Shown: positions 2,711 through 51,334 of the stretch, piece after piece
Position numbering within the stretch: position 1 is the stretch's first letter
Layout: every line of letters starts with the position of its first letter
Assembly (NCBI GenBank): GCA_034429995.1
Contig: DAOUEZ010000033.1
Location: 22,294-86,293 of the forward strand
Length of the DNA stretch: 64,000 nucleotides
Source of the DNA: Dehalococcoidia bacterium
GTDB taxonomy: Bacteria > Chloroflexota > Dehalococcoidia > SM23-28-2
Direction: 5' to 3'
The notes under the pieces: generated by a model
Databases searched by the model: none
What the model was told of the DNA's origin: nothing
Seen by the model: the letters and a program-made list of their open reading frames with translations, nothing else
Translations under genes and position numbers: made by a program

Positions 2711-3517
2711 CTACTGGTACGAGGGGCCGCCGGCGGCCCCGGCTTCGCCTCGACGAACCGCCCGTACGTCTTCCCCGACCGCTCGGGCCATGGCGCCGGA
2801 GTCGGAGGAGACCAGAACCATACGAAATCCCTCGGCGATGCGCTTGGGTGCGGTCGTAGCGCTGGAGTTGATGCCAGCCACAACGTTGTGGCGCCGGCAC
2901 GCCTCCAGGATGCGCTGGCGCGCTTCGGCATAGGCGGGCAGGTCGCCGTCCATTTGCGGCGGCAGGCCGAGGGAGATGCTCAGGTCCATCGGCCCGATGT
3001 AGACTGCATCAACGCCGTCCACGCTGAGAATCTCGTCCAGGTTCTCGAGGGCGGCCCTCGTCTCTATCTGGGGTATGCAGGACAGCTCCTGGTTGGCGTA
3101 GGCAAAGTAGTCCAGGCCAGCGTAATAAACGGCGCGGATGGGGCCGAAGCTGCGAATGCCCTGAGGCGGATAGCGGCAGGCAGCGACCGCTGCCTCGGCC
3201 TCTGCCCGGCTGTTCACCATGGGCACTATAACTCCGTAGGCTCCTGCGTCCAGCATCTTCATGATGATAGCCGAATCGTTCCAGGGCACGCGCACGAAAG
3301 GGGTTGTCGCTGTGGTGGAGATGGCCTGGAGCATAGCCAAGGCCGTGTCGTAGTCGATGAGCCCGTGCTGCATGTCGATGCACAGCCAGTCGAGGTTCTG
3401 GTGAGCCATCACCTCGGCCGAGAAGCCGCCCGGGATCATGAGCCAGCCCCCGAGCGCCGGTCGGTCCTGCTGCCAGAGCCGCTTAACCGCGTTCTCGCGC
3501 ATGTCTCCTGCCCCCAA
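2711..3517 (-). CDS. HpcH/HpaI family 2-keto-3-deoxy-acid aldolase. Alternative start at 3502 (MRENAV, preceded by AGGAG).
   Basis: 'LMIPGGFSAEVMAHQNLDWLCIDMQHG...VRVP...GAYGVIVPMVNS...IETRAALENLDEILSVDGVDAVYIGPMDLS' matches the HpcH/HpaI aldolase fold. Tandem with the downstream Ldh_2 gene on the same strand. Confidence 0.75.
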   Translation of the reverse strand: MGAGDMRENAVKRLWQQDRPALGGWLMIPGGFSAEVMAHQNLDWLCIDMQHGLIDYDTALAMLQAISTTATTPFVRVPWNDSAIIMKMLDAGAYGVIVPMVNSRAEAEAAVAACRYPPQGIRSFGPIRAVYYAGLDYFAYANQELSCIPQIETRAALENLDEILSVDGVDAVYIGPMDLSISLGLPPQMDGDLPAYAEARQRILEACRRHNVVAGINSSATTAPKRIAEGFRMVLVSSDSGAMARAVGEDVRAVRRGEAGAAGGPSYQ

Positions 3518-3853: not shown

Positions 3854-5131
3854 ATGGATATTTTCAACAGCCTGCGGGAGTCACAGGAGGAGGCCATGAA
3901 GATCAAGGTACCGCAGCTTCTCTGGTACGACAATAGCGAGCTGGAGCTGGATTTCCCTGACTCCTGGGACGTTCACTTCTTGCCCCCGAAGGGCCACGAC
4001 CGGCCAAGGCTGAGCCGGCAGGAGATAGAGCGAGCCTTCGCCAATCCCATCGGCACGCAGCGCATTCGCGACCTGGCTCGGGGCAAGAGCGAGGCGGTCA
4101 TCATCTTCGATGACATCACCCGCCCCACCCCGACAGGTGAGATCGCTCCCTTCATCCTAGAGGAACTGAAAGAGGCGGGCATCTCTGACGACCATATCCG
4201 TTTTGTTGTTGCCCTGGGCAGCCACGGCGCTCACGACAACCACGCCCTGCGCAAGAAGCTTGGCCAGGAGATTCTGGAACGCTTCCCCGTCTACAACCAC
4301 AATCCCTGGGAGAACTGCACGCCGGTGGGCACCACCAGCCGTGGCACGCCCCTGGCGGTCAACCGAGAGGTCATGAACTGTGACCTCAAAATCGGCATCG
4401 GCTGCATCCTCCCCCACCCTCAGGTCGGCTTCGGTGGCGGAAGCAAGATCATCCTTCCGGGAGTGGCCCACATCGACAGCATCGCCCATTTTCACAGAGA
4501 GGTCATGGCCAGCGCTCCCCAGACCACGGGCATGGGAAACTATGACGACAACGTCATGCGCTTCGACGCCGAGGAGGCTGCCAGGATGGCCGGCCTCGAC
4601 CTGACGGTCGACGCCCTGTTCAACATGCGGGGGGAGATCTCGGCCCTGTTCGTGGGGGATCCGCCGCTAGAGCATCAAGAGGGAGTGAAGCTGGCCAAGG
4701 AGGTCTACGCAACAGAGGGGCTCTCGGGCGCAGACATAGCGGTGACTAACGCCTTCCTCAAGTCTAGCGAGACGGCCATTTCCATCTTCGTTGCCATACG
4801 CTCCATCAAGCTCCCAGGGGGCACTATAGTGATGATCATGAACGCGCCGGAGGGCCAGATCATCCACTACCTGCTCGGCAGCTTCGGGAAAACCTACGGC
4901 GGCAGACAATACGTCCAGCGGACGATACCGTCCGCATTCAAGGTCATCGTGCTCAACCCTCTGAAGGACTTGACCTGTGTCGACCTTTTCGGCGACGCCC
5001 AGTCCGTCACCTGGGCCAAGGACTGGGGCGAGGTGGTGGACGAGCTGCGAGCCAGCTATCCCGATGGGGCCAAGGTGGCCGTGTACCCCGACGGCACCAT
5101 GCAGTACCTAGTGGGCACCAAGCCCAGCTAG
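3854..5131 (+). CDS. LarA-like nickel-pincer-cofactor racemase/epimerase family protein (DUF2088 N-terminus).
   Basis: 'KIKVPQLLWYDNSELELDFPDSW...AVIIFDDITRPTP' matches the LarA N-terminal architecture. 425 aa is typical of the LarA family. No larBCE in the window. Confidence 0.65.
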   Translation: MDIFNSLRESQEEAMKIKVPQLLWYDNSELELDFPDSWDVHFLPPKGHDRPRLSRQEIERAFANPIGTQRIRDLARGKSEAVIIFDDITRPTPTGEIAPFILEELKEAGISDDHIRFVVALGSHGAHDNHALRKKLGQEILERFPVYNHNPWENCTPVGTTSRGTPLAVNREVMNCDLKIGIGCILPHPQVGFGGGSKIILPGVAHIDSIAHFHREVMASAPQTTGMGNYDDNVMRFDAEEAARMAGLDLTVDALFNMRGEISALFVGDPPLEHQEGVKLAKEVYATEGLSGADIAVTNAFLKSSETAISIFVAIRSIKLPGGTIVMIMNAPEGQIIHYLLGSFGKTYGGRQYVQRTIPSAFKVIVLNPLKDLTCVDLFGDAQSVTWAKDWGEVVDELRASYPDGAKVAVYPDGTMQYLVGTKPS

Positions 5132-5406: not shown

Positions 5407-7692
5407 TCAATATCGCTGATCAAACCAATCGTAGACGACCCTCGATAACTGCGCGCCGAAGATATACGCCGCATACTCGGAGGGCATCGCCTGCGACAGG
5501 TAGGAGATTGCGTAGGCGATCTGCTTGCCTCCTCGTTCCATCGTCACGATTCCGACGTCATTGTAGACCCAGCCGTCCCAGTCGGGGTGGTAGCCGATCT
5601 TGTGAGCGACCCTTACCTCCGGCGGAAGAAAAAGGGGCAACACATAGTTCAACCCTGGCTTAATATCGAGGAGACGCTCAATGGTATAGGCGGTCCACTC
5701 GGCTGAGAACAGTTCCCCTCGATAGAGCTTGGCCAGTACCATGTTGGTTTCCCTGGCGGTCAGGATGTTCGGCCGCCAGTCTGGCCCCGGATAGAACGGC
5801 ACATAGCCATAAACAGAGTCTCTCATCCCCCAGCTCTGCATCAGCTCGTTGGCTCTTCCCACGCCTTCCTCCAGCGATCCTTTGATGCCCCGGACAAAGA
5901 CCGCCACCTCTGGCGGTGAGCTGTGGCCAATGCCAATCTTTATCCAGTAAGCCCAATCCTCGGGCTTCGCCCTCCCGGCTTCGAACTCCTCCACCGCCAC
6001 GAACAAGGCAAACATGTTGATGGTGCAGCCCGTCCTGTGCAGCGCATCGCCGTTGACGCAGATCGCTTCGCCCGTCTGAAGGTCGCTTACACAAATGGCC
6101 ACGTCGCCGTAGTAGTTGCGGATCCTGTCCTCCAGAACGGCCTGCAGGGCCAGGAATTCCTCCGATACCTCCACTTGGGGAGCTTCGGCCCCCGGCGCTT
6201 GCGGGGTTGGAATCAGAACGATCAGTGGCGAAAAGCCCCGCACGTAGGTCATAGTCGTAAGCTCAGGCCTTCCAGGGATAAACCGCTGCCAGGTGCCATC
6301 GACGGCCAAGCCATAAGCGACTGCGATCTGGTCACCCATTTCCCCTACAGCTACGGTGGCTTCCCTGCTCTCCCCCGAGTAGCATATGCTGTTCCACCCC
6401 GACGCCAGGACGAGATCACCGCCGGCCAGCGATGGCTCCTGCACCCAGGGGGCATAGTCGTCCGCCAAGACGAATAGCGCTTCATGGGGGCGAACAGTGC
6501 TAATGGTGCTCAAGCCCGGCCGGTCCGGGAACCAGCGGTCGTAGCGCCCATCAGGCCCCGGCCGGTAGACGGCCAAGACATTATCGGCGGCGCCTGCCAG
6601 GGCATCGGCCAGAGGCCGCTCATCGCCGAAGTAGCAAGCGTACGTCCAGCCAGGGACCAGCGTGACGCCGGGCATCCAGGAGACGATGGAGAGGCTGGCG
6701 CCGTCGGCGTGGGCCACGTAGACGCCGCCGCTGGCCAAGTCGACGTCAACCGCCGACAGGCCCCCGCCAAGGCCAACCGCCGAGGTCACTACGTTGGTAC
6801 GACCGTCAATAACCCACATGCGGTCGTCAGAGCTGCTACCCCCATAGATGCGACCGCTCGCGGAGTCGACCGCCAGGGCCTCGACCGAGCGGGGAACAGC
6901 GACAGAGTTGATAAGCGAGTTGTTGCTGGCGTCGATTACCAGAATAGTGCCGCCATCAGCGTCGCTCGCCTCCACAGCAGAGGTGGCAACGTACACTCGA
7001 TTGGAACCGCTATCCACCGCAACGTCCCAAGCCCCAACAGGCGAACCGCTAGCCAAGGGCAAGCTAGCAATCAGCAGGTTAGATACCCCATCCACCACCG
7101 CAAGATCGCCGCTTTCGCTACTGGCCACGTAGACGCGGCCCCGGTCGGGGTTCACCGCCACACCTGTCGGCAGATCGCCCACAGCCACGGTGCCGATGAC
7201 AAGATTGTGACGGCCATCGATGACCGAGACAGTGCCGCTACTGCGATTAGTAACGAAAACGCGACCCGTATTAGGGTCGACTGCCAGGTCCCAGGGTTCC
7301 TCGCCTGCAGGGAGAGTGGCGACGACCTCATTGCTTTCGCCATCTATCACCGTCACCTCGTTGCTCCCGCTGTTGGCGACGTAGACCCTGTTCGCCCTCG
7401 CATCGGCGGCTACGCCACGAGGAGCGCTACCTACCGGAATAGTAGCGATGACACTGCCGCTCGCACCGTCAATGACCGATACGTTCTCGCTCTCGGCGTT
7501 CGCCACGTAGATGCGGTTGGTGCTGGAGTTCACCGCCAGGGCCACGGGCTGGGAGCCATCGGGCTCCAGAGTGAGCGTGGTCACCAGGGCTGCGTCCTCG
7601 GGATAGGCAGGCTCGGCGGGGATAGCGGCCCCTACCACCAACAGCGCGAGGCCGACCAGAGCTAGCGCCGCAAACCGTGCTGCGAGTGCCAT
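5407..7692 (-). CDS. Secreted multi-domain protein. N-terminal signal peptide, ~6-7 YVTN-type beta-propeller repeats, and a C-terminal class-A beta-lactamase-like (PF13354-like) domain with a non-canonical active site.
   Basis: Repeated 'RVYVANSGSNEVTVIDG'-type blades. C-terminal 'VAHKIGYHPDWDGWVYNDVGIV' resembles the KTG/'AHKTG...NDxGIV' box of class A beta-lactamases. The S-x-x-K position reads 'GCTIN' (Cys for Ser, Asn for Lys). Confidence 0.55.
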   Translation of the reverse strand: MALAARFAALALVGLALLVVGAAIPAEPAYPEDAALVTTLTLEPDGSQPVALAVNSSTNRIYVANAESENVSVIDGASGSVIATIPVGSAPRGVAADARANRVYVANSGSNEVTVIDGESNEVVATLPAGEEPWDLAVDPNTGRVFVTNRSSGTVSVIDGRHNLVIGTVAVGDLPTGVAVNPDRGRVYVASSESGDLAVVDGVSNLLIASLPLASGSPVGAWDVAVDSGSNRVYVATSAVEASDADGGTILVIDASNNSLINSVAVPRSVEALAVDSASGRIYGGSSSDDRMWVIDGRTNVVTSAVGLGGGLSAVDVDLASGGVYVAHADGASLSIVSWMPGVTLVPGWTYACYFGDERPLADALAGAADNVLAVYRPGPDGRYDRWFPDRPGLSTISTVRPHEALFVLADDYAPWVQEPSLAGGDLVLASGWNSICYSGESREATVAVGEMGDQIAVAYGLAVDGTWQRFIPGRPELTTMTYVRGFSPLIVLIPTPQAPGAEAPQVEVSEEFLALQAVLEDRIRNYYGDVAICVSDLQTGEAICVNGDALHRTGCTINMFALFVAVEEFEAGRAKPEDWAYWIKIGIGHSSPPEVAVFVRGIKGSLEEGVGRANELMQSWGMRDSVYGYVPFYPGPDWRPNILTARETNMVLAKLYRGELFSAEWTAYTIERLLDIKPGLNYVLPLFLPPEVRVAHKIGYHPDWDGWVYNDVGIVTMERGGKQIAYAISYLSQAMPSEYAAYIFGAQLSRVVYDWFDQRY

Positions 7693-7824: not shown

Positions 7825-8520
7825 ATGCAATACAAGACTATCTTGGTAGAAAAGAAGAACCATATAGCGATTCTCACCCTTAATAGACCGGAGAAATTGA
7901 ATGCCATGAATCTGGAGTTAAAGAACGAGCTCTACCACGCCCTGGATGAGTTGGAGGCTGATGATGATGTTCGAGTTGTAATTATGACCGGGGCTGGGAA
8001 AGCTTTTTCATCAGGCCATGATATGAGCGCCCCTCCTTCCGAACTACCGCAGTTCGTAAGTCTCAAGGAAGAAGAGAAGCTACTCAACCTTGATAAGCCT
8101 GTAATAGCAGCAATACACGGGTATACTCTGGGCGACGGACTTCAACAGGCATTGTTGTGCGATATTATTGTCGCCTCGGAGAATGCTGTCCTTGGTTTCA
8201 TAGGGGCTCGGGTAGGGGGGCTGTGTTATGGCTCCTTCTCGGTTGTTCCCGCTGTCGTAGGCAGGAGTAAAGCCAACGAGCTGCTCTTTACCTGTGACCA
8301 GATAAGCGCCGAAGAGGCTCATAGAATCGGCCTGGTGAACAAAGTGGTACCCCACGAGCAACTTATGCCCGCAGTCTTAGAGATGGCCGAGAAAATCATG
8401 AAATCCCCACCGCTATCGATAAAGTATACCAAGCGTGCGCTGAGGACGGCGTTGGTTAATCATGCTCACCGCAGGGCCCTGGAGGACGGATGGCGTGCCA
8501 TCCTAGAGGCCAGCAGATGA
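7825..8520 (+). CDS. Enoyl-CoA hydratase/isomerase (crotonase) family protein. Lies in a low-GC segment.
   Basis: 'HIAILTLNRPEKLNAMN...VRVVIMTGAGKAFSSGHD' is the crotonase fold signature. RBS 'aaggaaggag' precedes ATG 7825; the upstream in-frame extension was rejected. Local GC is clearly lower than its flanks. Confidence 0.8.
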   Translation: MQYKTILVEKKNHIAILTLNRPEKLNAMNLELKNELYHALDELEADDDVRVVIMTGAGKAFSSGHDMSAPPSELPQFVSLKEEEKLLNLDKPVIAAIHGYTLGDGLQQALLCDIIVASENAVLGFIGARVGGLCYGSFSVVPAVVGRSKANELLFTCDQISAEEAHRIGLVNKVVPHEQLMPAVLEMAEKIMKSPPLSIKYTKRALRTALVNHAHRRALEDGWRAILEASR

Positions 8521-8711: not shown

Positions 8712-10088
8712 CTACATCCCCGCGAACTGCTTGATGCAGACGATAGAGCAGTCGCGACCGTGGATTCGCTCTGCCTCGGCCACGGCCTCCTCGACGCTGG
8801 CGGTCGGGATGAAGCCCACGTGTCGTGGCACCGCCGGGTCCTCCGCTCCAGCCACGAATACGCGAGCCGCGTGTCGCAGGCGCTTCAGTGGATGCGTCGC
8901 CAGTATCCCATGCACCGGGTGGAAGGCATAGCCGTTGCGGTAGCGCTCGATATAGTCGGCCCGACTGGCGAACTCGTCCATGAAGCGAGCGGTAATCTCG
9001 TACGGGTCGAGGGTCTCCGGCAGCACTCGGTTCCACACCTCCGGGTACGAGGGATGATGCTCCATATCCCAGTCCTCTGGGCAAGGCGTGGCCATGATCA
9101 CCGAGCAGCCTGGCTTGCCCAGAGCCTCGATGTAGCCCCCCAGGTAGCCAAGCCCGGAAGAGATCAGGGTTAGAATGGGGTTCATACGAGCGAAGGTGGC
9201 ATATGGGCTCCAGGCTGGAAGCCCGTAGATCACCACGTCAGCGGGGTCGGTGGCGGCACGCCGTGGCTGGTACAGCGAAGCCTGTACCTCAAGCGCTGCG
9301 GCCCGCGTCTCGTCCACGCCGCCGGCAAACACACGTCCGATGGTCGCCGGGTTAGCCAGCAACGTCTCCACCTTAAACACTCGGCGGCCCAGCCTTGACT
9401 CCAGATGCCGGCCCATCTCATCGAAGACGGCGTGCATCCGGTTGCCCCGCACAGACATCGTCATGCCGTCCGGCGTATGCGTCCAGCGAATGGAGCGCCA
9501 GGTGGACAGCCCAACGCAGACCGATTTCCAGCCGCCATTGAAGCCCAGGTAGCAGGCGGCATTGATGTACACAGTCAAGTCCGACTCCGCTACCAGGCGA
9601 TGAACCTCCACATCATATCCATTGGGCGTTTTGCCCATGTACACGAGGTTGTCCGGGTCTTCGGCATCCTGGCAGCTCAGACGCGATCCGAAGCGCTGCA
9701 CCAGCTCCTGCCCCAGGATGGTCGCTAGCTCCTGGTGCGTCCACCTGCGGTGGAGTCCGTTGGCGCAAACGAGCGAGACGTTCTCCTCAGGCACACCGGC
9801 TTCCGCCAGCTCTTCCAGGATTGCTTCGATGGCCAATCGCCTGACGGGACCGAACGACGGCGCTGTCGGATCGTCGAAGGCAATAAGCACCCGAGCCCCG
9901 GGACGAACCAGTTGGCCGACGCGGGGCAGGCCCAGCGGCTCCGCCAGCGCAGCTCGAACGGCCGCCTCTTGATCTGCCACCGGCTCCAGACGGGGCCCCC
10001 GACGCTCGCCGCCTACCAGTCGGGTGCGGTCGGGAAGGCTCACGTCTATGTTCGTGTTACCAAAGACCAGCGACTGTTCGATCATCAT
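8712..10088 (-). CDS. Second LarA-like racemase/epimerase paralog (DUF2088 + LarA C-terminal domain).
   Basis: 'RVLIAFDDPTAP...' N-terminal LarA-like core. GGAGGAGG RBS immediately upstream of ATGATG at 10088. Paralogous to 3854..5131. Confidence 0.65.
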   Translation of the reverse strand: MMIEQSLVFGNTNIDVSLPDRTRLVGGERRGPRLEPVADQEAAVRAALAEPLGLPRVGQLVRPGARVLIAFDDPTAPSFGPVRRLAIEAILEELAEAGVPEENVSLVCANGLHRRWTHQELATILGQELVQRFGSRLSCQDAEDPDNLVYMGKTPNGYDVEVHRLVAESDLTVYINAACYLGFNGGWKSVCVGLSTWRSIRWTHTPDGMTMSVRGNRMHAVFDEMGRHLESRLGRRVFKVETLLANPATIGRVFAGGVDETRAAALEVQASLYQPRRAATDPADVVIYGLPAWSPYATFARMNPILTLISSGLGYLGGYIEALGKPGCSVIMATPCPEDWDMEHHPSYPEVWNRVLPETLDPYEITARFMDEFASRADYIERYRNGYAFHPVHGILATHPLKRLRHAARVFVAGAEDPAVPRHVGFIPTASVEEAVAEAERIHGRDCSIVCIKQFAGM

Positions 10089-10328
10089 CGCGCCTCCTCC
10101 CAGTCTGCACCTGATTCTAGCGGCCGACACCTGGTCAGGCAAGAAGTGCGGTTCGTCAGCGACTTCCGAACTCTGTATAAGCGGTTCCTAGTGAGCACCT
10201 GGGGGGGCCGCCTGCTTTTCCCTCAGGCCGTGGTGGGCTGCCGCTAGCCCCCACATTTCGGCCGTGCAAGGCAGCCCGTCCAGCAGGGCGCATCGTGCAT
10301 CCCAGAAATTTCTGGCAACGATTTTCTA

Positions 10329-10574: not shown

Positions 10575-11534
10575 TTGATGCCCGCCGTTCGACGGCGGGA
10601 GAAAGTATTGTTTGTGTCTGTCTGCCCGCCCACAAGGAGGCGACCGCTGGAACGGCAACCGGCGAACGCTCACACCACCGCTGAGGCGTTTATCTATTGT
10701 CAGCGGCTCGCTGTGAGCCACTACGAGAACTTCACCGTGGCCTCCTGGCTTCTTCCCAGGGCACTCCGCCAGCACGTCTATGCTGTCTACGCCTTCTGCC
10801 GCCACGTGGACGACCTGGGCGATGAAGCGCCGGGCGACCGGCTGAGCCTGCTGGACGACTGGCAGACGGAGCTGGAGCGTTGCTACCACTCGACGCCCCG
10901 CCATCCCATCCTCATGGCCCTTCGGGAGACCATTCGCTGTTTTGCTATCCCGCCAGAGCCCTTCCTCAAGCTCATCGAGGCCAACCGCATGGACCAGCGC
11001 ACAAGCCGCTACCCCACCTTCGAGGAACTCCTCCACTACTGCGATCATTCCGCCAACCCCGTCGGCCACCTGTTCCTCTATCTCTTCAGCTATGCGGACG
11101 CTGAGCGCCAGGGTCTCGCCGATGCCACCTGCACCGCCTTACAGCTCACCAACTTCTGGCAGGACATCGCTGTCGATCTGGGCAAAGGCCGGGTGTACAT
11201 ACCGCTGGAAGATATGGCCCGCTTCGGCTACTCCGAGGAGGAGCTGGAGCGAGGCATCATAAACGATGGCTTCCGTGCTCTTATGGCCTTCGAGGTCGGC
11301 CGAACAAGGGAGTTGTTCGCCAAAGGGCTGGGGCTCCTGGACATGGTGGATGGCCGTCTGAAGGTGGACCTCAAGCTGTTCAGCCTGGGTGGCCTAGCTG
11401 TCCTGGAAGCCCTCGAGAGGAACGACTACGATGTCTTTCGTCGGCGGCCGCGGCTTTCGCGCTGGCAAAAGGCCGCCCTCTTCGTCCGCGGCCTCCTGCC
11501 CGGCCGGCCAGCAGTGAAAACCTGGAGGAGATGA
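10575..11534 (+). CDS. hpnC: Hydroxysqualene synthase HpnC (squalene/phytoene synthase family). Exact start uncertain.
   Basis: 'YENFTVASWLLP' and 'YCDHSANPVGHL' match HpnC-type signatures (SANPVG). First gene of the tandem hpnC-hpnD pair. Confidence 0.7.
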   Translation: MMPAVRRREKVLFVSVCPPTRRRPLERQPANAHTTAEAFIYCQRLAVSHYENFTVASWLLPRALRQHVYAVYAFCRHVDDLGDEAPGDRLSLLDDWQTELERCYHSTPRHPILMALRETIRCFAIPPEPFLKLIEANRMDQRTSRYPTFEELLHYCDHSANPVGHLFLYLFSYADAERQGLADATCTALQLTNFWQDIAVDLGKGRVYIPLEDMARFGYSEEELERGIINDGFRALMAFEVGRTRELFAKGLGLLDMVDGRLKVDLKLFSLGGLAVLEALERNDYDVFRRRPRLSRWQKAALFVRGLLPGRPAVKTWRR

Positions 11535-11537
11535 TCT

Positions 11538-12398
11538 GTGGAAGGCTCAGTGCAGGGAGCCTACCGATACTGCCAAGAGCTAGCTAAGCGGGAGGCAAGA
11601 AACTTCTACTACGGCTTTATCCTCTTGCCGCCTGCAAAGAGACAGGCTATCTACGCCGTCTACGCATTCGCCCGCCGCTGCGACGACATTGTGGACGACG
11701 ACCTGGAGCCGGAGGAAAAGGTCCGACAACTGGCCGAATATCGTCGCCGGTTGGAGCAATGCCTGCACGGCCAGCCCTCCGGCCCCACCTTCCTGGCCCT
11801 GCAGGATACCATCCGCCGATACGGTATCCCACCTGAGTACTTCTGGCAGCTCATCGACGGTGTGGAGATGGACCTGACCGTACGCCGTTACCCCACCTTC
11901 GCTGAACTGCGCCGCTACTGCTACGGCGTTGCCTCCACTGTGGGCCTCATCAGCATCGAGATCTTCGGCTATCGCGACGGCCAGCAAGCCCGCCAGCACG
12001 CTGAAGACCTGGGTATTGCCTTGCAGCTTACAAACATCCTGCGGGATATCCGCGAGGACGCTCACAGGGGCCGCATCTACATCCCCCAGGACGAAATGGA
12101 GCGCTTCCGCTATTCGGAAGCCGACATCTTTAACGGCATCGTCAATGAACCGTCTCTGCACCTCATGCAGTTCCAGGTGGAGCGAGCGCGCGAGTACTTC
12201 GAGCGGGGGCGAAAGCTGCTGCCTCTCCTCCCTCGTCGCTCCCGCGCCTGCACAGCCGTCCTCCAGGGCATCTACAGCAGGATCTTGGAACGTATCGAGG
12301 CTCAGCCGTCCGCTGTGCTGCGAGAGCGCGTGAGTCTAAGTGGCAGCCAGAAGCTAGCCCTGGCTGGCCGGGAGCTTGTTCGGAGCCTGGTGACGTGA
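11538..12398 (+). CDS. hpnD: Presqualene diphosphate synthase HpnD (squalene/phytoene synthase family).
   Basis: 'YCYGVASTVGLISIEIFG' and DxxxD-containing regions are typical of HpnD/CrtB-type enzymes. GTG start 4 nt after the hpnC stop. Confidence 0.7.
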   Translation: MEGSVQGAYRYCQELAKREARNFYYGFILLPPAKRQAIYAVYAFARRCDDIVDDDLEPEEKVRQLAEYRRRLEQCLHGQPSGPTFLALQDTIRRYGIPPEYFWQLIDGVEMDLTVRRYPTFAELRRYCYGVASTVGLISIEIFGYRDGQQARQHAEDLGIALQLTNILRDIREDAHRGRIYIPQDEMERFRYSEADIFNGIVNEPSLHLMQFQVERAREYFERGRKLLPLLPRRSRACTAVLQGIYSRILERIEAQPSAVLRERVSLSGSQKLALAGRELVRSLVT

Positions 12399-13846
12399 CT
12401 GAGGGGAAGCCGCAGGTAATCATCATCGGCGGTGGCCTGGCTGGCCTGGCGGCGGCCTGTGAGCTAGCGGAGCACGGGTACAAAGCCGTCCTCGCTGAGC
12501 GGCGGCCCTCCCTGGGCGGTCGCGCCTACTCCTTTTCCGACCCTCAGGGGAAGGGAGAGGTAGACAATGGCCAGCACGTGTTCCTGAAATGCTGCACCTA
12601 TTACATCCGCTTCCTCCAGAAGCTAGGTGTTTGGCACAAGGTCGACCTGCAGAAGCAATTGCGGGTGACCGTCATCGATCCCCACACGGGGGCCAGCACC
12701 CTGGCGAGCTCTTCTCTCCCCGCTCCCTTCCATCTCCTGCCCTCCTTCCTGCGCTTTCGCCACCTCTCCCCTCTGGACAAGGCGCGGGCGGCCTACGCCA
12801 TGCTCTCCATCCTTTTCAGCGACCGGACGAGGAACAATAAGCTCGACTCCATCAGCTTCTATCGCTGGCTAAAGAACCACGGCCAGACCGAGGCAGCTAT
12901 CGACCGCTTCTGGAACCTGATCGTTCTCGCTACCCTCAACGACGACATTCGAAGGGTCAGCGCCGACCTGGCGATGATGGTCTTTCAGGAGGGTTTCTTG
13001 AAGCGGGCAGACGGGGCCAACGTTGGCTACGCGGCGGTGGGGCTTACCAGCCTCGTCGGCAGGGAGGCCCGCCGCTACATTGAGGAGCGAGGCGGTCGTG
13101 TCATCCTGGGCCAAAAGACGGAAGAGCTCTTGCTGGAGAGAAAGCGCATAGGGGGCGCCAGGCTCGCCGACGGCAGCATCCTGCAGGGGGAATGGTACGT
13201 CTGCGCGGTGCCCCACGAGATGCTCCTGACCGTCATTCCGCCTAGCCTCCGCAGCGACCCCTTTTTCCGACGGGCGAACAAGCTCACTACAACCCCCATC
13301 GTCAACATCCACCTCTGGTACGACCGGCCGGTCATGGACCTCGACTTCGCCGCCTTCATCAATAGCGAGGCGCAATGGGTGTTCAACAAAAGCAAGATGT
13401 GGCATCTGGCCGGCGATGGCCAGTACTTGGACGTCTCCCTCAGCGGGGCGCGGCACTACATCGACCTACCCAAGGAAGAGCTCATCGAGCGCTTCACGGG
13501 CGAGCTTCGCAGGCTCTTCCCCAGGGCTCGCCAGGCACGGGTAGAGCGCTGCCTGGTGGTGAAGCAGCGACAGGCCACCTTCGCTGCCGTGGCAGGCTCC
13601 GGCAAGTACCGCCTGCCCTGTCGTACGCCCATCGAAAACCTCTTCCTGGCTGGCGATTGGACAGCCACGGGATGGCCGGCCACTATGGAGAGCGCTGTCC
13701 GGAGCGGCGTTGCCTGCGCCAGAGAGATACGTCGTCTCGCGCCTCAGGCCGCACAGAAAGGAGGTGATCAAGAGACTCTCGACACTTCCACCGAGACCCG
13801 ATCAAGAAGCAATCTTCATCTGTCATCCGTTAGGAGCAAGTCATGA
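12395..13846 (+). CDS. hpnE: Hydroxysqualene dehydroxylase HpnE (FAD-dependent amine-oxidase-like).
   Basis: N-terminal 'VIIIGGGLAGLAAACELAEHGYKAVLAERRPSLGGRAYSF' FAD-binding fold. GTGA start/stop overlap with hpnD, implying translational coupling. Position after hpnCD. Confidence 0.7.
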   Translation: MTEGKPQVIIIGGGLAGLAAACELAEHGYKAVLAERRPSLGGRAYSFSDPQGKGEVDNGQHVFLKCCTYYIRFLQKLGVWHKVDLQKQLRVTVIDPHTGASTLASSSLPAPFHLLPSFLRFRHLSPLDKARAAYAMLSILFSDRTRNNKLDSISFYRWLKNHGQTEAAIDRFWNLIVLATLNDDIRRVSADLAMMVFQEGFLKRADGANVGYAAVGLTSLVGREARRYIEERGGRVILGQKTEELLLERKRIGGARLADGSILQGEWYVCAVPHEMLLTVIPPSLRSDPFFRRANKLTTTPIVNIHLWYDRPVMDLDFAAFINSEAQWVFNKSKMWHLAGDGQYLDVSLSGARHYIDLPKEELIERFTGELRRLFPRARQARVERCLVVKQRQATFAAVAGSGKYRLPCRTPIENLFLAGDWTATGWPATMESAVRSGVACAREIRRLAPQAAQKGGDQETLDTSTETRSRSNLHLSSVRSKS

Positions 13847-15174
13847 AGATCAAGAAAGCTAAAGCCCTAGGTTTTTGCTTCGGAGTGCGCCGAGCCATCG
13901 AGGTCGTAGAACGAGGGGCGGAAGAGTATGGGCCTATCGACAGCCTGGGCTCAATAGTGCACAATCCGGAAGTGGTCAAACGCCTGGCTGCCAAGGGCGT
14001 TGATGTAGTGAATGGGCTAGAGCATGTCCAGAACGGCACCGTCGCTATCACCGCCCATGGCGCCAGACCCGAAGTGACGCACGAGGCGGCGGCGCGAGGG
14101 CTACACCTGGTCGATGCCACCTGCCCCATCGTGCGCAGGTTGCAGAAGATGGCCCAGCGCCTGCAGGCCGGCGGCTTCCAGGTGTTGATCTACGGTGACG
14201 AGCATCACCCAGAGGTGCGAGCCGTCCTGGCCTGGACCAATGGCGATGGCTCTGCCTTGCAGGACCCGGAGGCGCCTCTGGCGATTCGCCGACGCAAGGT
14301 GGCTCTCCTCTCCCAGACCACCAAGAGCGCGGAATCCTTCACTGCTTTCGTGGCCAAGTTCATGACCAAACATATCGGCTGCATAAACGAACTGCGGGTC
14401 ATCAACACCACCTGTCCCGAGACCGAGGAGCGTTACCAGGCGGCGCGCGAGCTGGCCAAGGAATGCGACCTCCTTATCGTTGTAGGCGGCAGGACCAGCG
14501 CTAACACCCGCAAGCTGGCCGATACCTGTATCGCTACGGGCGTGGAGACCCAACAGGTGGAGACGGCTGCCGAGATCGACCCTGCCTGGCTGGTGGGCAA
14601 AGACTCGGTTGGGGTGACCGCCGGCGCTTCCACCCCCGACGAGTCCATCGACCAGGTTGTGCAGCACCTTCAGGAGCTGGCCAGCCAGCGCCATAGAGCC
14701 GTGAGCGAACAGCGCGAGGGCTTGCCGGGTGTGAAGTTTTCCTTCCGCAGCCTTACGATTCGCACAGACAAGGGGCCGCAGTTCATCGACATCACCGACG
14801 GGGTCGCTAGCCTTGCCCAAGAGTCGACCATCCGCAACGGGTTTGCCATCGTCTTCACTCGCCACACGACGGCAGCCATTCGCATCAACGAGAACGAACC
14901 CCTGCTCTTACGTGACATGGAGGAGTTCCTAGGGAAGGTTGCTCCCGCCCATGTCTACTACAACCACAATGACTTCAGTCGTCGCACCGCCAACATGACC
15001 GATAACGAGCAGCCCAACGGCCATGCCCACTGCCAGCAACTCCTCCTGGGGGCAAGCGAGGCCATCCCTATCGTCGCTGGCCAGCTCCTCCTCGGGCAGT
15101 GGCAACGCCTCTTCCTGGTGGAGCTCGACCGGGGCCGGGAGCGGGAGGTCGTGGTTCAGTTGGTGGGAGAGTAG
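13843..15174 (+). CDS. ispH: 4-hydroxy-3-methylbut-2-enyl diphosphate reductase (IspH/LytB) fused to a C-terminal YjbQ/UPF0047 domain; 443 aa.
   Basis: N-terminal ~300 aa has IspH hallmarks ('GFCFGVRRAIE', 'ATCPIV', 'NTTCPETEE'). The C-terminal ~130 aa ('IVFTRHTTAAIRINENEPLLLRDMEEFL...HAHCQQLLLGASEAIPIVAGQLLLGQWQRLFLVELDRGREREVVV') matches the YjbQ/UPF0047 pattern. AGGAG RBS upstream. Confidence 0.75.
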   Translation: MKIKKAKALGFCFGVRRAIEVVERGAEEYGPIDSLGSIVHNPEVVKRLAAKGVDVVNGLEHVQNGTVAITAHGARPEVTHEAAARGLHLVDATCPIVRRLQKMAQRLQAGGFQVLIYGDEHHPEVRAVLAWTNGDGSALQDPEAPLAIRRRKVALLSQTTKSAESFTAFVAKFMTKHIGCINELRVINTTCPETEERYQAARELAKECDLLIVVGGRTSANTRKLADTCIATGVETQQVETAAEIDPAWLVGKDSVGVTAGASTPDESIDQVVQHLQELASQRHRAVSEQREGLPGVKFSFRSLTIRTDKGPQFIDITDGVASLAQESTIRNGFAIVFTRHTTAAIRINENEPLLLRDMEEFLGKVAPAHVYYNHNDFSRRTANMTDNEQPNGHAHCQQLLLGASEAIPIVAGQLLLGQWQRLFLVELDRGREREVVVQLVGE

Positions 15175-15175
15175 G

Positions 15176-16204
15176 ATGGAACTGCCCAACCTTTTCGCCC
15201 GTTATCGCATCGAGCTGGAGGAGTATCTCCGATCGGCCCTGCCAGAGAGCAGCCCGGCGCTCCTCTATCGCATGATGCGCTACCACCTTGGCTGGGAGGA
15301 CGAGCAGGGCCGCCCCCTGGCCGAGGGCGCGGGGAAGGCTCTCCGTCCCACCCTTTGTCTCTGGGCCTGTCAGGCAGCAGGCGGTGACTGGCGAACCGCC
15401 CTACCAGCGGCCGCTGCCCTGGAACTGGCGCACAACTTCTCCCTCGTACATGACGACATCCAGGATGCCGACAGAGAGCGGCGCCATCGACCGACCGTCT
15501 GGAGCCTGTGGGGCCAGCCCCAGGCGATCAATGCCGGCGATAGTCTGCTGATCTTGGGCCGTCTTGTCATGTTGCGATTGGAGGAGCGAGGCGTAGCCCC
15601 GGCTAAGGTCATCGAGGCCTGTCGCGTACTGGACGAGGCCTGCCTGGAGATGATCAAAGGACAATGCTTGGATATCAGCTTCGAAGATGAGCGAGAGGTG
15701 AGTGTGGAGGCCTACCTGGACATGATCGCCAGGAAGACGGGCGCCCTCCTGGGAGCTTCCCTGCATCTGGGTGCCCTCGTGGCCATCGATGACGAGCCGC
15801 AGGTGAAACGCTTCGCCCGCTGCGGCCACCTCCTCGGCCTAGCCTTCCAGATTCGCGATGATATCCTGGGCGTCTGGGGCGCTGCCGATGTCACCGGCAA
15901 GCCAGTCGCGGCCGATATTCGCCGCCGCAAGAAGTCACTGCCGGTAGTCTACGCCATGGCCGTGGCCCAGGCTGAGGAGCGCGAGCAGTTGCTCCGAGTC
16001 TACAGCCAGGGGACGCCAAGTGACGAGGAGGTAAGTATTGTCCTCCAACTGTTAGACAGCCACAGAGCCTACGACTACTGCCAGCAGATGGCTCAAGAGC
16101 GCATTGAGGAAGCCCTGGCGGAGCTGGCACAGGTGGACATGGAGCCGACAGCCCGGCGCGAGTTCGAGGCGGTGGCCAAGTTCCTGCTGGAGCGAGAATT
16201 CTAG
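15176..16204 (+). CDS. Polyprenyl diphosphate synthase (FPP/GGPP synthase family).
   Basis: Two Asp-rich motifs, 'LVHDDIQDAD' and 'FQIRDDILG'. ATG 1 nt after the ispH stop; the ORF-track N-terminal extension overlapping ispH was rejected. Confidence 0.8.
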   Translation: MELPNLFARYRIELEEYLRSALPESSPALLYRMMRYHLGWEDEQGRPLAEGAGKALRPTLCLWACQAAGGDWRTALPAAAALELAHNFSLVHDDIQDADRERRHRPTVWSLWGQPQAINAGDSLLILGRLVMLRLEERGVAPAKVIEACRVLDEACLEMIKGQCLDISFEDEREVSVEAYLDMIARKTGALLGASLHLGALVAIDDEPQVKRFARCGHLLGLAFQIRDDILGVWGAADVTGKPVAADIRRRKKSLPVVYAMAVAQAEEREQLLRVYSQGTPSDEEVSIVLQLLDSHRAYDYCQQMAQERIEEALAELAQVDMEPTARREFEAVAKFLLEREF

Positions 16205-16240
16205 GAGCATGGCGAATCCGCCGATGTCGAGGGGAGTTGC

Positions 16241-17257
16241 ATGGCCGGACAACCTGTGGAGCTAGCTCTGAAGCTGACCCGCTACCTTATCGAGAACAAG
16301 ATTCGAGGGCGCCGCCGCTTTCCCCTTACCATGATCCTCGAGCCCTTGGAGAAGTGCAATCTGGCCTGCGAGGGCTGCGGCCGCATTCGAGAGTACGCGC
16401 CGGTCATCGACCGGATGATGACAGTGGAAGAGTGCCTGACCGCGGTGGAGGAATGCGGGGCACCGGTGGTCTCTATCGCTGGAGGCGAGCCCCTAATGCA
16501 CCCCGATATCGACCGGATCGTAGAAGGCATCGTCCGCCAGAAGCGCTTCGTCTACCTGTGCACCAACGCCCTCCTCATGAAGCGAGCGCTGACAACCCTA
16601 GACCCGTCTCCTTACCTCAGCTTTGTCGTCCATCTCGACGGCCTGCGCGAAACCCATGACCGCTCGGTGGGCCGCCGGGGCGTCTACGACGTGGCGGTCA
16701 CCGCCATCCGGCTGGCTCGCCGGGCAGGCTTCCGAGTCTGCACCAACACCACCCTCTATAGCGGCGTCCAGCCGCGGGAGTTTCAGGCGCTGTTCGCCAT
16801 GCTCACCAGAATGGGCGTCGAGGGGATCATGGTCTCGCCGGCGTTCCAATTTGAGGAGGTCGCTACGAAGGACATCTTCCTGGCCCGCCAGCAGGCCATC
16901 GAGTTCTTTCAGTCCATCTTTGAAGGATGCCGAAACGGTACCCGCTTCTACAACAACCCCCTCTATCTGGACTTTCTCCAGGGCAAGCGCCGCTACCAGT
17001 GCACGCCGTGGACGGTCCCCACCCGCACGCCCTTGGGCTGGCGCCAGCCCTGCTATCTCATCGCCGACCAGCACGTGGGCACCTTCGCTGAGCTTATGGA
17101 GAGCACCCCCTGGGAACGCTACGGCTTTGGCCGAGACCCCCGCTGTGCCAGTTGCATGATGCACTGCGGCTACGAGGGCTCGGCGATCCTGGAGGCCCTG
17201 GAGAAGCCAGCAGCGGCATGGGAAATGGCGAGGCGAGTGCTCTTCCCTTCTAGGTAA
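16241..17257 (+). CDS. hpnH: Hopanoid-associated radical SAM protein HpnH (adenosylhopane synthase).
   Basis: 'CNLACEGCG' radical SAM cluster motif. N-terminal 'LTRYLIENKIRGRRRFPL' is typical of HpnH. Lies within the hopanoid locus. Confidence 0.75.
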   Translation: MAGQPVELALKLTRYLIENKIRGRRRFPLTMILEPLEKCNLACEGCGRIREYAPVIDRMMTVEECLTAVEECGAPVVSIAGGEPLMHPDIDRIVEGIVRQKRFVYLCTNALLMKRALTTLDPSPYLSFVVHLDGLRETHDRSVGRRGVYDVAVTAIRLARRAGFRVCTNTTLYSGVQPREFQALFAMLTRMGVEGIMVSPAFQFEEVATKDIFLARQQAIEFFQSIFEGCRNGTRFYNNPLYLDFLQGKRRYQCTPWTVPTRTPLGWRQPCYLIADQHVGTFAELMESTPWERYGFGRDPRCASCMMHCGYEGSAILEALEKPAAAWEMARRVLFPSR

Positions 17258-17267
17258 GAGCGAGACG

Positions 17268-18056
17268 ATGATCGCCATCGTCGCCGCCCTGGACACAGAG
17301 CTATCGGCCCTGGAAAGAAGGGCGAGGGTCAGGCGCTGGCCTTCGCCTGCTTGGCCACTCATCGGCGAAGGGACGCTCGCCGGAAGGCAAGTCCTGCTGG
17401 TGCGGACGGGGATGGGCTCTGCCCGCGCGCAGGAGGCCACCGCCGTCCTGATACAGCGCCACAATCCAGAGGCTATCCTGTCGATTGGTTTCGCTGGCTC
17501 CCTGGTGGACGGACTTCGGGCGGGCCATCTAGTCATCGCCCGCCAGGTATATGTCCTCTCGGAACCCCTCCATGGGGGACCGCTGGCGGTGTCCAATGGG
17601 CTAGCCTGCGACCCTGCACTGGTGGCATTGGCCCTGGCGGCGGCTGGACAAAGGAGACTGGCCTTCCGCGAGGGCGCATCTCTCACCGTCCCCCAGGTGG
17701 TCAGCCAGCCCGAAGTCAAGGTGCGAATTGGAGACAGTTTGCCAGTCGAGGTGGTGGAGATGGAGAGCTATTGGGTGAGCCGCGTTGCCGCCGACCAGGG
17801 CATTCCCTTCTTGGTTGCGCGAGCCGTCCTGGATGAAGTTGGCGACCGTCTGCCTGACCTGCCCAACATAGTCGACGAGGCTGGAGCGGTCGCCAAGGGT
17901 CGAGCCTTGCGCCAACTCCTCTCGCGACCACGGGAGGCACCAGGCCTCATCCGCCTGGCCGCCAGCGCCCGTCGGGCAAGCCAGAGGCTAGCCGTCTTCG
18001 CTGAAGCCTTTGTGGACGTCCTCGCCGCTTCGCGTTCGCTCGGGAGGCACCAATGA
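17268..18056 (+). CDS. hpnG: Hopanoid-associated nucleoside phosphorylase/nucleosidase HpnG.
   Basis: PNP/MTAN-fold-like 'MIAIVAALDTELSAL...' N-terminus. Sits between hpnH and shc, as in known hopanoid side-chain loci. Confidence 0.6.
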   Translation: MIAIVAALDTELSALERRARVRRWPSPAWPLIGEGTLAGRQVLLVRTGMGSARAQEATAVLIQRHNPEAILSIGFAGSLVDGLRAGHLVIARQVYVLSEPLHGGPLAVSNGLACDPALVALALAAAGQRRLAFREGASLTVPQVVSQPEVKVRIGDSLPVEVVEMESYWVSRVAADQGIPFLVARAVLDEVGDRLPDLPNIVDEAGAVAKGRALRQLLSRPREAPGLIRLAASARRASQRLAVFAEAFVDVLAASRSLGRHQ

Positions 18057-19972
18057 AAGAGACTCAACCAGAAACTGCCTCCAACAAGACCACTGCCGAT
18101 ATCTCTGAAGCCGTAGACCTGGCCATCCAGCGTGCCCAGAACTATTTGCTGAGCATCCAATACCCCGAGGGCTACTGGTGGACCGAGCTGGAGACCAATG
18201 TCTGCATGGCCGCTGAATACCTGCTGCTGACCCACTTCCTCGGTGCAGCCGACCGCCGGCGCTGGGACAAGATCGTCAACTATCTGCGTCGCCAGCAACT
18301 CCCCGACGGCACCTGGAACATCTACCACGACGGCCCCAGCGATCTCAATGCCACCGTGGAAGCCTACTTCGCCCTCAAGCTGGCCGGCGTCTCCCCCGAC
18401 GAGCCAGCCATGGACAAGGCCCGCCAGTTCGTCCTCTCGCGGGGTGGCGTCCCTAAGGTCCGCATCTTCACCAAGATCTGGTTGGCCCTCTTCGGCCAGT
18501 GGGACTGGCGGGGCGTGCCTGTCCTGCCACCAGAGCTTATGCTCCTACCCTCCTGGTTTCCCATCAACATCTACGAGTTCGCCTCCTGGGCACGGGCCAC
18601 GATCGTCCCCATGCTCATCATCCTCACCCGACGCCCCGTTTGCCCTATCCCTGGCGAGGCCCGCATCGATGAGCTGTACCCTGCCCCTCGCGACCAAGTG
18701 GACTATTCCCTCTCCAAGAGCGCCAGACTCCTGAGCTGGAAGGCCTTCTTCCTCACTACCGACAAGTTCCTTCGTTTCTACGAACGCTGGGGCTGGAAGC
18801 CTTTCCGCCGACGGGCCACCCTCGCTGCCGAGAAGTGGATCGTCCAGCATCAGGAGGCCGACGGCAGCTGGGGCGGCATCCAGCCGCCGTGGGTCTATTC
18901 CCTCATCGCCCTCAAGCTCCTGGGCTACCCCCTGGACCACCCGGTGATGGCCAAAGGCCTTCGTGGTTTCGAAGGCTTTGCCATCGAGGATGAGGAGACC
19001 TTCAACCCTCAGGCCTGCCTATCCCCCCTATGGGACGCCTGCCTGGCTATGAACGCCCTGCTTGATTCGGGCCTGCCGCCGGATCATCCAGCCCTGGTCA
19101 AGGCCGCCCGCTGGCTGCTGAAGGAACAGATCCTCAGCGGCGGCGACTGGCAGGTGAAGAACGGCAAGGGCCCGCCCGGCGGCTGGGCCTTCGAGTTCGC
19201 CAACGACCTCTACCCCGACACCGACGACACGGCGGAGGTGATGATGGCCCTCCTCGGCACCCGAATCCCCGAAGAGGACGAGAAGGCTGAAGCCCTGGAG
19301 CGAGGCCTTCAGTGGCTCCTGAGCATGCAGAGCAAGAACGGCGGCTGGGGCTCCTTCGACGTCAACAATACCAGGCGTTTCATCACTCAGATCCCCTTCT
19401 GCGACTTCGGGGAGGTCATCGACCCTCCCAGCGAGGATGTCACCGCCCACATCGTGGAACTCCTGGGACGGCTCGGCTACGACAAGACCTTCCCGCCTGT
19501 CCGTCGCGCCCTTGCTTACCTGCGGCGTGAGCAGCAGCCCGACGGCTCCTGGTTCGGCCGCTGGGGGGTGAACTACGTCTACGGCACGGGAGCAGTCCTC
19601 CCAGCCCTGCAAGCCGTCGGCGAGGACATGGGGCAGGACTGCGTCCGCAGGGCCGTACGCTGGCTGATAGAGCACCAGAACGAGGACGGCGGCTGGGGCG
19701 AGACCTGCGCTTCCTACGCCGACCCAGCCCTGCGAGGCAAGGGCTCCAGCACCGCCTCCCAGACGGCATGGGCCCTGCTCGGTCTATTGGCTGGCGGTCA
19801 GGGAGCCAGTGAGGCTGCATTGCGAGGCGTCAACTACCTCTTGGAGACCCAAGCAGAGGACGGCTCCTGGGATGAACCGTACTTCACAGGCACAGGCTTC
19901 CCGCGCGATTTCTTCATCAACTACCACATGTACCGCAACTACTTTCCCCTCATGGCCCTGGGACGGCTATAG
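18053..19972 (+). CDS. shc: Squalene-hopene cyclase.
   Basis: 'DTDDTAEVMMAL' DxDDTA catalytic motif. Multiple QW-type repeats ('DGSWGG', 'DGGWGE', 'DGSWFGRWG'). 639 aa. Confidence 0.9.
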   Translation: MKETQPETASNKTTADISEAVDLAIQRAQNYLLSIQYPEGYWWTELETNVCMAAEYLLLTHFLGAADRRRWDKIVNYLRRQQLPDGTWNIYHDGPSDLNATVEAYFALKLAGVSPDEPAMDKARQFVLSRGGVPKVRIFTKIWLALFGQWDWRGVPVLPPELMLLPSWFPINIYEFASWARATIVPMLIILTRRPVCPIPGEARIDELYPAPRDQVDYSLSKSARLLSWKAFFLTTDKFLRFYERWGWKPFRRRATLAAEKWIVQHQEADGSWGGIQPPWVYSLIALKLLGYPLDHPVMAKGLRGFEGFAIEDEETFNPQACLSPLWDACLAMNALLDSGLPPDHPALVKAARWLLKEQILSGGDWQVKNGKGPPGGWAFEFANDLYPDTDDTAEVMMALLGTRIPEEDEKAEALERGLQWLLSMQSKNGGWGSFDVNNTRRFITQIPFCDFGEVIDPPSEDVTAHIVELLGRLGYDKTFPPVRRALAYLRREQQPDGSWFGRWGVNYVYGTGAVLPALQAVGEDMGQDCVRRAVRWLIEHQNEDGGWGETCASYADPALRGKGSSTASQTAWALLGLLAGGQGASEAALRGVNYLLETQAEDGSWDEPYFTGTGFPRDFFINYHMYRNYFPLMALGRL

Positions 19973-25082: not shown

Positions 25083-25205
25083 AATAAAGGCTCCCGCACC
25101 GCCGTTGCCCTACGGCTGGGCGGATGGTAGATTTGGGCTGCGGCGGAAGGCCGCCGGCAAACATCGTGGAAGCACCATCGTCCTAGCCCACAGCGGAGGA
25201 GCCCA

Positions 25206-25841: not shown

Positions 25842-25943
25842 CTGGCTTGAAGAGCAGGCCTCCGGTTCGCCCGTTTGAAGGCATCAGCTACAGGCTGTAG
25901 ACGCGCTGCAAGCCCACAGTCAACGGATACGAGAGGTAGCATC

Positions 25944-26870: not shown

Positions 26871-26873
26871 GGC

Positions 26874-28508: not shown

Positions 28509-28649
28509 ATACGCTCCTCCAACCCACAGGGACCACAAGTGGCGTCCGAGGGACCACCTGCTCGCTTTCACAGGACATCCTGAATATACTATTGGCTTAG
28601 CTCTCAGGCAAAGCCGATGACTGCTGGAGGGCTGGGGGGAGTGACCGCC

Positions 28650-29849: not shown

Positions 29850-29887
29850 CCACGGGCCAGGTGAGGCGGGCGTCTATGCAGCCAGGT

Positions 29888-51299: not shown

Positions 51300-51334
51300 G
51301 TATATGATCTGAAGATGGTAGCGAGGGGCCGGGG

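Follow-up and report, generated by a model that had tools for sequence, protein, structure and literature searches.

A cysteine at the catalytic serine position of a PBP-A-type domain: a candidate thiol peptidase or transpeptidase on a propeller protein of a Dehalococcoidia bacterium

Few enzyme families have been studied as closely as the SxxK acyl-serine transferases, i.e. the penicillin-binding proteins (PBPs) and serine beta-lactamases. A gene of a Dehalococcoidia bacterium (contig DAOUEZ010000033.1) raises the question of what such a fold does when a cysteine stands in place of its catalytic serine. This ATG-started open reading frame (ORF) of 761 amino acids plus stop lies at 5407..7692 of the 64,000-nucleotide stretch analysed here, referred to as the window, on the reverse strand, as do all of the gene's features given below. 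Its C-terminal domain (residues 511-761; 5410..6162) had been described in an earlier note as class-A-beta-lactamase-like, with G-C-T-I-N at the S-x-x-K motif, and as either a non-catalytic module or a thiol-based variant. As judged from sequence and fold comparison, the domain would be a peptidase or transpeptidase that works through a thiol acyl-enzyme and derives from PBP-A-type DD-peptidases, a reading to which we assign a probability of roughly 0.5.

The assignment of the C-terminal ~250 amino acids to this fold stands. They match the Pfam family PF13354 (Beta-lactamase2) with an E-value of 2.5e-16 and 60-65 bits (gathering cut-off 22). For residues 499-761, an AlphaFold2 (AF2) model based on 58 homologues reached a mean predicted local distance difference test score (pLDDT) of 96.2 and a predicted template-modelling score (pTM) of 0.92. 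Using Foldseek against the PDB, only class A beta-lactamases and PBP-A were retrieved, with probability 1.0 and template-modelling (TM) scores of 0.72-0.79 over more than 50 structures, including LRA-5 (8eo5), Sphaerobacter 4ewf, TLA-1, PBP-A (2j7v) and PER. The domain is a PF13354 member whose predicted structure, an alpha/beta plus an all-alpha subdomain, is that of class A enzymes and PBP-A and not an unrelated fold.

The motif register was obtained from three alignments that agree with each other, namely phmmer against LRA-5 and the family profile against both TLA-1 and PBP-A, and all motif coordinates were confirmed by translation. G555-C556-T-I-N559 (6016..6030) is the counterpart of S70-x-x-K73, with C556, the putative nucleophile, on Ser70 and N559 on Lys73, where PBP-A reads A-S61-T-I-K64. 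In the AF2 model, C556 is located at the N-terminus of helix alpha2 (57-73 in domain numbering), which is where class A enzymes have their Ser70. S591-S-P (5914..5922) corresponds to S130-D-N, with the serine invariant and Asn132 lost. The Omega-loop segment V631-P-F-Y634 (5791..5802) has an invariant proline and no acidic residue; Y634 aligns to Leu158 of PBP-A, the Glu166 equivalent, and to the 'EEE' region of TLA-1, in a loop where the alignment is uncertain by about two residues. On strand beta3, H697-K698-I-G700 (5593..5604) is the counterpart of K234-T-G, with His, Lys and Gly invariant and Ile at 235. N-D-V-G-I-V aligns to the beta4 'NDxGI' of LRA-5 and TLA-1, in line with the proposal that AHKIG...NDVGIV represents the KTG box. 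An hhalign comparison with TEM-1 (approximate query sequence) aligned only the KTG region, at low probability, and was not used.

Is the cysteine a peculiarity of this protein? A homologue search with the domain gave 69 homologues, mostly 'serine hydrolase' entries of Dehalococcoidia/Chloroflexota metagenome-assembled genomes (MAGs). All 69 have Cys at position 70, Ser130 and H-K-x-G, and nearly all have Asn73. When 1.84 billion cluster representatives were searched exhaustively with HMMER, 2713 relatives were obtained with E <= 1e-3, 442 with E <= 1e-10 and 119 with E <= 1e-30. Conservation was counted in a pooled set of 244 domains, each with every motif column present: position 70 is Cys in 215 and Ser in 29, and the cysteine is kept down to about 30% identity among related domains. 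All 215 Cys-type domains have Ser130, Lys234 and Gly236. Position 73 is Asn in 160 of them, Lys in 48, His in 4 and Asp in 3. Nine columns are at least 97% identical in the Cys-type set (D39, C58, S93, P134, N144, H199, K200, G202 and D214), four of which are among the eight canonical catalytic positions (hypergeometric p 5e-5). Asn132 is present in only 10/215 Cys-type domains vs 24/29 Ser-type domains (Fisher p 1e-20); by these alignments its loss accompanies the Ser-to-Cys change, and the active site appears remodelled in a coordinated way.

Two other roles for conserved residues were considered and rejected. C556 is not the partner of a structural disulfide, because it is the sole conserved Cys of the domain (C533 and C545 are unconserved). 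An obligatory Cys-His dyad involving the His of the pre-Omega 'D-H-x-P' does not hold either, with His in 103 of 138 CxxN domains and Gln in 23; this position is Tyr in the window protein and its orthologues.

Three subtypes can be distinguished among the Cys-type domains. Subtype (a), to which the window protein belongs, reads GCTIN / GxS[YS]PP / AHKIG and occurs in 40 GTDB species, all of them Chloroflexota/Dehalococcoidia MAGs except for one 34%-identical match from a 'Gammaproteobacteria' MAG; an (a)-like member was also found in Microgenomates of the candidate phyla radiation (CPR). Subtype (b), GC[VT][MI]N / WSSNA / SHKNG, occurs in Dehalococcoidia, Tepidiformaceae and CPR (Woykebacteria). 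Subtype (c), ACTIK / GPSNT / YHK[IV]G, keeps Lys73 and occurs in MAGs of Herpetosiphonaceae, Roseiflexaceae and Thermomicrobiaceae, for which relatives in culture exist. The Ser-type sisters nearest to (c) read ASTIK / SDN / HKPG and share 46-50% identity with the CxxK query P0119. In a neighbour-joining tree with midpoint root, SxxK groups are interspersed among the Cys clades; the tree is crude and leaves one or several Cys origins undecided. Near-identical subtype-(a) copies with the same upstream sequence are present on contigs 1 and 2 (L022 and L020 being these two copies) of one Dehalococcoidia MAG, assembly CAXXTF01. Since there is this duplication and subtypes (a) and (b) both occur in Dehalococcoidia, single genomes can hold several Cys-type paralogues. 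A separate case is the 4384-aa protein P0212, in which the domain occurs twice in divergent form, once with 'GSLIH' and once with 'ASTIH' (His at 73), and with degenerate SDN and KTG motifs; this is possibly a different, truly degenerate use of the fold.

The window protein carries all the marks of this proposed (uncurated) Cys-type clade: [GA]-C-x-x-[NK], Ser130, H-K-x-G, the beta4 'ND' and an N-terminal anchor. The observation made for one protein can therefore be widened: the cysteine is the hallmark of a Chloroflexota/CPR family and, as read from this survey, an ancient family trait, not a one-off, drift or a decayed pseudo-enzyme. Selection on the gene was assessed with the ratio of nonsynonymous to synonymous substitutions (dN/dS) against five full-length orthologues (L009-L013), which are GTDB species representatives with 72-85% identity, one of them on a closed chromosome (CP070630.1). 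The gene is under purifying selection, with dN/dS values of 0.12-0.35 for the Cys domain, 0.23-0.41 for two repeats upstream of it and 0.37-0.50 for an N-terminal propeller. In all but one of the five comparisons, the Cys domain has a lower value than either of the other two regions, and the C556 codon differs synonymously (TGC/TGT) in L010. Between the two options left by the earlier note, the invariance of the cysteine in 215 domains, that of Ser130, Lys234 and Gly236 beside it and the low dN/dS favour the thiol variant over a decayed pseudo-enzyme.

Which known family is closest? As far as its residues tell, the domain is not a class A beta-lactamase in the Ambler sense, because the Ser70, Lys73, Asn132 and Glu166 signatures are missing and the domain comes nowhere near the cut-offs of the NCBIfam class A models (NF033103, 29 bits vs 200; NF012099, 33 bits vs 320). 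Ser70-x-x-Lys73 is replaced by C556-T-I-N559; S130-D-N keeps its Ser and loses Asp and Asn; and V-P-F-Y634 provides no acid for Glu166. K234-T/S-G is a mixed case, with Lys and Gly present and invariant and Ile replacing the hydroxyl residue. Compared with PBP-A-type enzymes, the T-I and the spacing of Ser61-T-I-Lys64 are the same with Cys and Asn at the catalytic positions, and a non-acid at the Glu166 position is shared. The absence of an acid there holds for the family, as in PBP-A (Leu158) and LRA-5 (Val166). Among characterised proteins, PBP-A-type DD-peptidases and LRA-5, both without Glu166, are nearer to the domain than true beta-lactamases.

PBP-A of Thermosynechococcus elongatus (Tll2115; PDB 2j7v, 2j8y, 2j9o) is a low-molecular-weight DD-peptidase with the fold of the window domain (Foldseek E ~4e-13, TM 0.75-0.79). 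Besides a nearly identical first motif, the two share the Ser130 equivalent, K-x-G on beta3, 'xDxG' on beta4 and a hydrophobic or aromatic residue at the Glu166 place (Leu158 in PBP-A, Tyr634 in the window protein), and the Ser-type sisters of the Cys clade have ASTIK as well. The differences are Ser to Cys, Lys73 to Asn, Asn132 to Pro and KTG to KIG at ~19-20% identity, with a propeller, repeats and a signal/anchor in the window protein only. LRA-5, a metagenomic class A beta-lactamase 'precursor' without Glu166, is the best PDB match by both structure and sequence (E 9e-15, TM 0.77, 22% identity). It retains Ser70, Lys73, S-D-N and K-T-G, five residues of which are lost in the window protein, and becomes an active beta-lactamase after two substitutions.

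Such matches, the best of which are beta-lactamases and the LRA-5 precursor, could suggest that the protein is a natural thiol beta-lactamase or binds beta-lactams, as a protection or warning for the cell, and that it possibly degrades them by the thioester fragmentation route of engineered S70C enzymes. According to PMC6391942, S70C KPC-2 and OXA-48 do hydrolyse and fragment penicillins. We nevertheless regard this explanation as very improbable. The window domain lacks a Glu166-type base, Asn132, Thr/Ser235 and any other evident carboxylate-binding residue, and wild-type LRA-5, in which only Glu166 and Gln69 are missing, gives minimum inhibitory concentrations equal to those of control strains (PMC12777564). 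Anchoring on a large surface stalk is also unlike resistance enzymes. Finally, Dehalococcoidales and SAR202 are reported to have lost the dcw/peptidoglycan genes, which basal Dehalococcoidia retain (PMC10608941), so such lineages would have no beta-lactam target; this would apply to the window organism if it belongs to one of them. The 64-kb window itself contains no peptidoglycan genes, although this says nothing about the rest of the genome.

The engineered thiol beta-lactamases (S70C TEM-1, KPC-2 and OXA-48) have the Cys at position 70 of the same fold in common with the window protein. They are laboratory point mutants that keep Lys73, Glu166, SDN and KTG, whereas the window Cys is natural and ancient, in a remodelled site. 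To our knowledge, the only "thiol beta-lactamases" known so far are laboratory mutants. Natural Cys-type members of the fold were not found described in the full-text literature, the coverage of which was incomplete, so that an earlier description is possible; the clade is a large Chloroflexota/CPR family for which no description has been found so far.

The thiol peptidase or transpeptidase that we favour would be a catalytically competent thiol form of the PBP-A-type (class-A-fold) acyl-serine transferases, presented on the outer side of the cytoplasmic membrane by a stalk of propeller and repeats. That the fold tolerates a thiol nucleophile follows from the engineered S70C KPC-2 and OXA-48, which stay active via a thioester acyl-enzyme with Cys70 as nucleophile (PMC6391942). 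In the window protein, the dipole of helix alpha2 would lower the thiol pKa and favour the Cys556 thiolate, and because of this the general base Lys73 would be dispensable and could become Asn. The thiolate would then attack the carbonyl of a peptide, amide (or ester), with the backbone NH groups of residue 556 and of the residue following K-I-G as the oxyanion hole, while the Ser591-Lys698 pair (Ser130/Lys234) would pass a proton to the leaving group. Even with no Glu166-type base, an amine acceptor or water could then resolve the thioester. As the thioester would favour transfer to an amine, a transpeptidase or peptidase would be expected and not a beta-lactamase, with a cell-envelope or extracellular peptide as the putative substrate class.

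A thiol nucleophile had been considered unusual for an extracellular protein, a view we do not share. Sortases and L,D-transpeptidases are membrane-anchored and extracytoplasmic, use a Cys nucleophile and resolve their thioester by an amine (cf. PMC6391942). The likeness to them is an analogy only: sortases and L,D-transpeptidases (YkuD) have unrelated folds and Cys-His pairs, without homology to the window domain.

Several observations weigh against a catalytic role of this kind. Lys73, the usual general base, is Asn in 160 of the 215 Cys-type domains, with no universal His or acid as a substitute. Residue 235 is Ile, Asn or Val in the family, so that the usual carboxylate-binding hydroxyl is gone, and for this reason D-Ala-D-Ala should not be assumed as the substrate. 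Among 20 long relatives examined, none is fused to a peptidoglycan-binding domain (LysM, SPOR or PG_binding), and no operon partner is conserved across the lineages compared. Moreover, strict conservation of the pocket would equally be expected of a binding module with high specificity.

A non-catalytic ligand-binding or sensor module is the main alternative, although a doubtful one. The PBP-A pocket would then bind a peptide, muropeptide or other small ligand in a surface receptor or adhesin, with the Cys serving in binding, redox sensing or reversible covalent capture. The loss of Lys73, Asn132, Glu166 and Thr/Ser235 removes four residues for acylation, deacylation and carboxylate binding, the fusion partners in the family (YVTN, PD40 and F5/8-type-C) are generic binding modules, and the gene is monocistronic without a metabolic partner. 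The fold matches also include 2wuq, BlaB of Streptomyces cacaoi, which we take to be a class-A-fold protein without enzymatic activity. Pseudo-enzymes, however, usually let the nucleophile position drift, and here it is Cys in every one of the 215 Cys-clade domains next to invariant Ser130, Lys234 and Gly236. The CxxK subgroup keeps Lys73 beside the Cys, a combination hard to explain if the site only binds, and Cys is the one replacement known to leave the fold active (PMC6391942).

How is the domain presented to the outside? At the N-terminus, residues 1-25, MALAARFAALALVGLALLVVGAAIP (7618..7692), form a signal peptide or signal anchor: a basic stretch is followed by an 18-aa hydrophobic window (residues 7-24, mean Kyte-Doolittle hydropathy 2.72), in agreement with the signal peptide proposed before. 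A hydrophobic N-terminal segment is found in 140 of the 159 Cys-type proteins with an N-terminal extension, and the usual family architecture is a transmembrane anchor, a Pro/Thr-rich linker and the domain. By this pattern the Cys-type members are membrane-anchored and extracytoplasmic.

The signal or anchor is followed by a YVTN-type beta-propeller (residues ~40-335; 6688..7575) with matches to TIGR02276, PF21783 (YNCE) and PF01436 (NHL). The TIGR02276 match (E 2.8e-41, 139 bits, cut-off 27.85) covers five stretches and places the region in the YVTN repeat family; PDB 1l0q, a Methanosarcina surface-layer protein, is matched with E 7e-52. The propeller of the earlier note is thus real, and its count of ~6 blades becomes ~7, with clear 'R[IV][YF]V' blade motifs at residues 60, 102, 144, 186, 232 and 281 and a degenerate seventh around 323. 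In their seven-bladed YVTN repeats, the surface-layer proteins of the Methanosarcina mazei MM1976 type (1l0q) and YncE resemble the window protein; the surface-layer proteins carry PKD or other domains and, unlike the window protein, no PBP-fold domain.

Between propeller and Cys domain lie two tandem repeats of a ~70-aa module that the earlier note had missed. They span residues 341-415 (6448..6672) and 425-497 (6202..6420), as delimited by self-alignment, with a local self-alignment score of 112 vs 27.8 +/- 5.6 in shuffles (~15 standard deviations). Each repeat opens with G-W-x-x-x-C-Y and closes with a hydrophobic 'L/I-V-L'; a short Pro/Ala linker connects repeat 2 to the Cys domain. No Pfam match was obtained for residues 341-497, and the AF2 model from a three-sequence alignment has a pLDDT of 38.7. 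The repeats were found only in close orthologues (P0001, P0002, P0072 and L009-L013). A word-index homologue search came back empty even though P0001 and P0002 contain them, a sensitivity limit of that search. The N-terminal domain of P0004, P0005, P0007 and P0032 was ruled out as a relative (z <= 2). Propeller and repeats are limited to the sub-lineage of the window protein, where they may act as binding or spacer modules; most members of the family lack the propeller, and other long members have a PD40 propeller or an F5/8-type-C domain instead.

The 761-aa gene was called identically by the Joint Genome Institute (JGI) on 23 metagenomic contigs (longest 130 kb) from the environmental metagenomes 3300031654, 3300031351 and 3300031278. 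It is a lone transcription unit, with an enoyl-CoA hydratase gene upstream in divergent and a LarA-like gene downstream in convergent orientation. Its environmental source, together with the uptake and catabolic genes in which the window is rich (ABC sugar and amino-acid binding proteins, GH31, LarA-like racemases and corrinoid methyltransferases), might point to a secreted or surface scavenging amidase or esterase, the Cys of which frees amino acids from D-amino-acid-containing necromass peptides or recalcitrant amides in sediment. The propeller and discoidin fusions suggest polymer binding, which would be the task of the propeller. This is a variant of the thiol peptidase reading that differs only in substrate and physiological role, and we consider it unlikely. 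Most members are tethered by a transmembrane segment and not secreted, and no linkage to a transporter or catabolic operon is conserved across lineages: the neighbours are LarA-like, enoyl-CoA hydratase and HpcH genes at the window locus, and GlcDEF and an FGGY kinase at P0055, P0059, P0044 and P0040.

With respect to the surroundings of the gene, it is flanked by two LarA-like (Lar_N / DUF2088) paralogues at 3854-5131 (forward strand) and 8712-10142 (reverse strand), with the enoyl-CoA hydratase at 7825-8520, an HpcH/HpaI aldolase at 2711-3517 and an Ldh_2 dehydrogenase nearby. This set may be a neighbourhood for the racemisation and catabolism of small organic acids. A complete-looking hopanoid cluster of this Dehalococcoidia genome is located at ~10600-19972. 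It comprises two SQS_PSY genes (HpnC/HpnD-like), an amine oxidase (HpnE-like), a polyprenyl synthase, a radical-SAM DUF3463 protein (HpnH-like), a PNP_UDP_1 protein (HpnG-like) and a squalene-hopene cyclase (18053-19972), and within it lies an unusual LytB(IspH)-YjbQ fusion of 443 aa (13843-15174). A set of genes for corrinoid-dependent methyl transfer at ~25200-31050 and 52682-53623 comprises three URO-D genes (MtaA/MtbA-like) together with genes for a B12-binding protein, an S-methyl_trans protein and the reductive activase RACo; it suggests methyl-group metabolism (O- or S-demethylation). At 39607-42360 (reverse strand), a 917-aa protein combines PMT_2 (GT39/ArnT-like glycosyltransferase) and PA14 domains; it may glycosylate surface proteins, which would be of relevance to an S-layer-type envelope. 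The region 50001-54000 has a GC content of 0.52-0.55 vs ~0.62 elsewhere, contains a UbiE-type methyltransferase, a TrmO-like gene, a URO-D gene and a 115-aa ORF without Pfam match, and may have been recently acquired.

As a more far-reaching proposal, and one we rate as decidedly unlikely, the Cys clade would be an unrecognised class of PBP-derived extracytoplasmic transpeptidases that form thioesters. In Dehalococcoidia without peptidoglycan, these would have been repurposed for cross-linking or anchoring S-layer or surface glycoproteins, the Ser-to-Cys change being selected since thioesters partition towards aminolysis. The clade would then be, at the same low level of confidence and by analogy, a functional counterpart of sortases and L,D-transpeptidases on a penicillin-binding fold.

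For annotation, the consequence is more direct. Cys-type members are named 'serine hydrolase' or 'beta-lactamase class A' in PGAP and IMG, names that, going by the aligned residues, are systematic mis-annotations, as the active-site serine is absent. This concerns hundreds of proteins and bears on resistome surveys, where it could inflate environmental resistome counts. For the family, the Cys lineage is a natural experiment on Ser vs Cys in one fold, with CxxK and CxxN stages and Ser-type sisters, and for Chloroflexota and CPR, among them lineages that reportedly have no peptidoglycan, it is a pointer to new cell-envelope chemistry.

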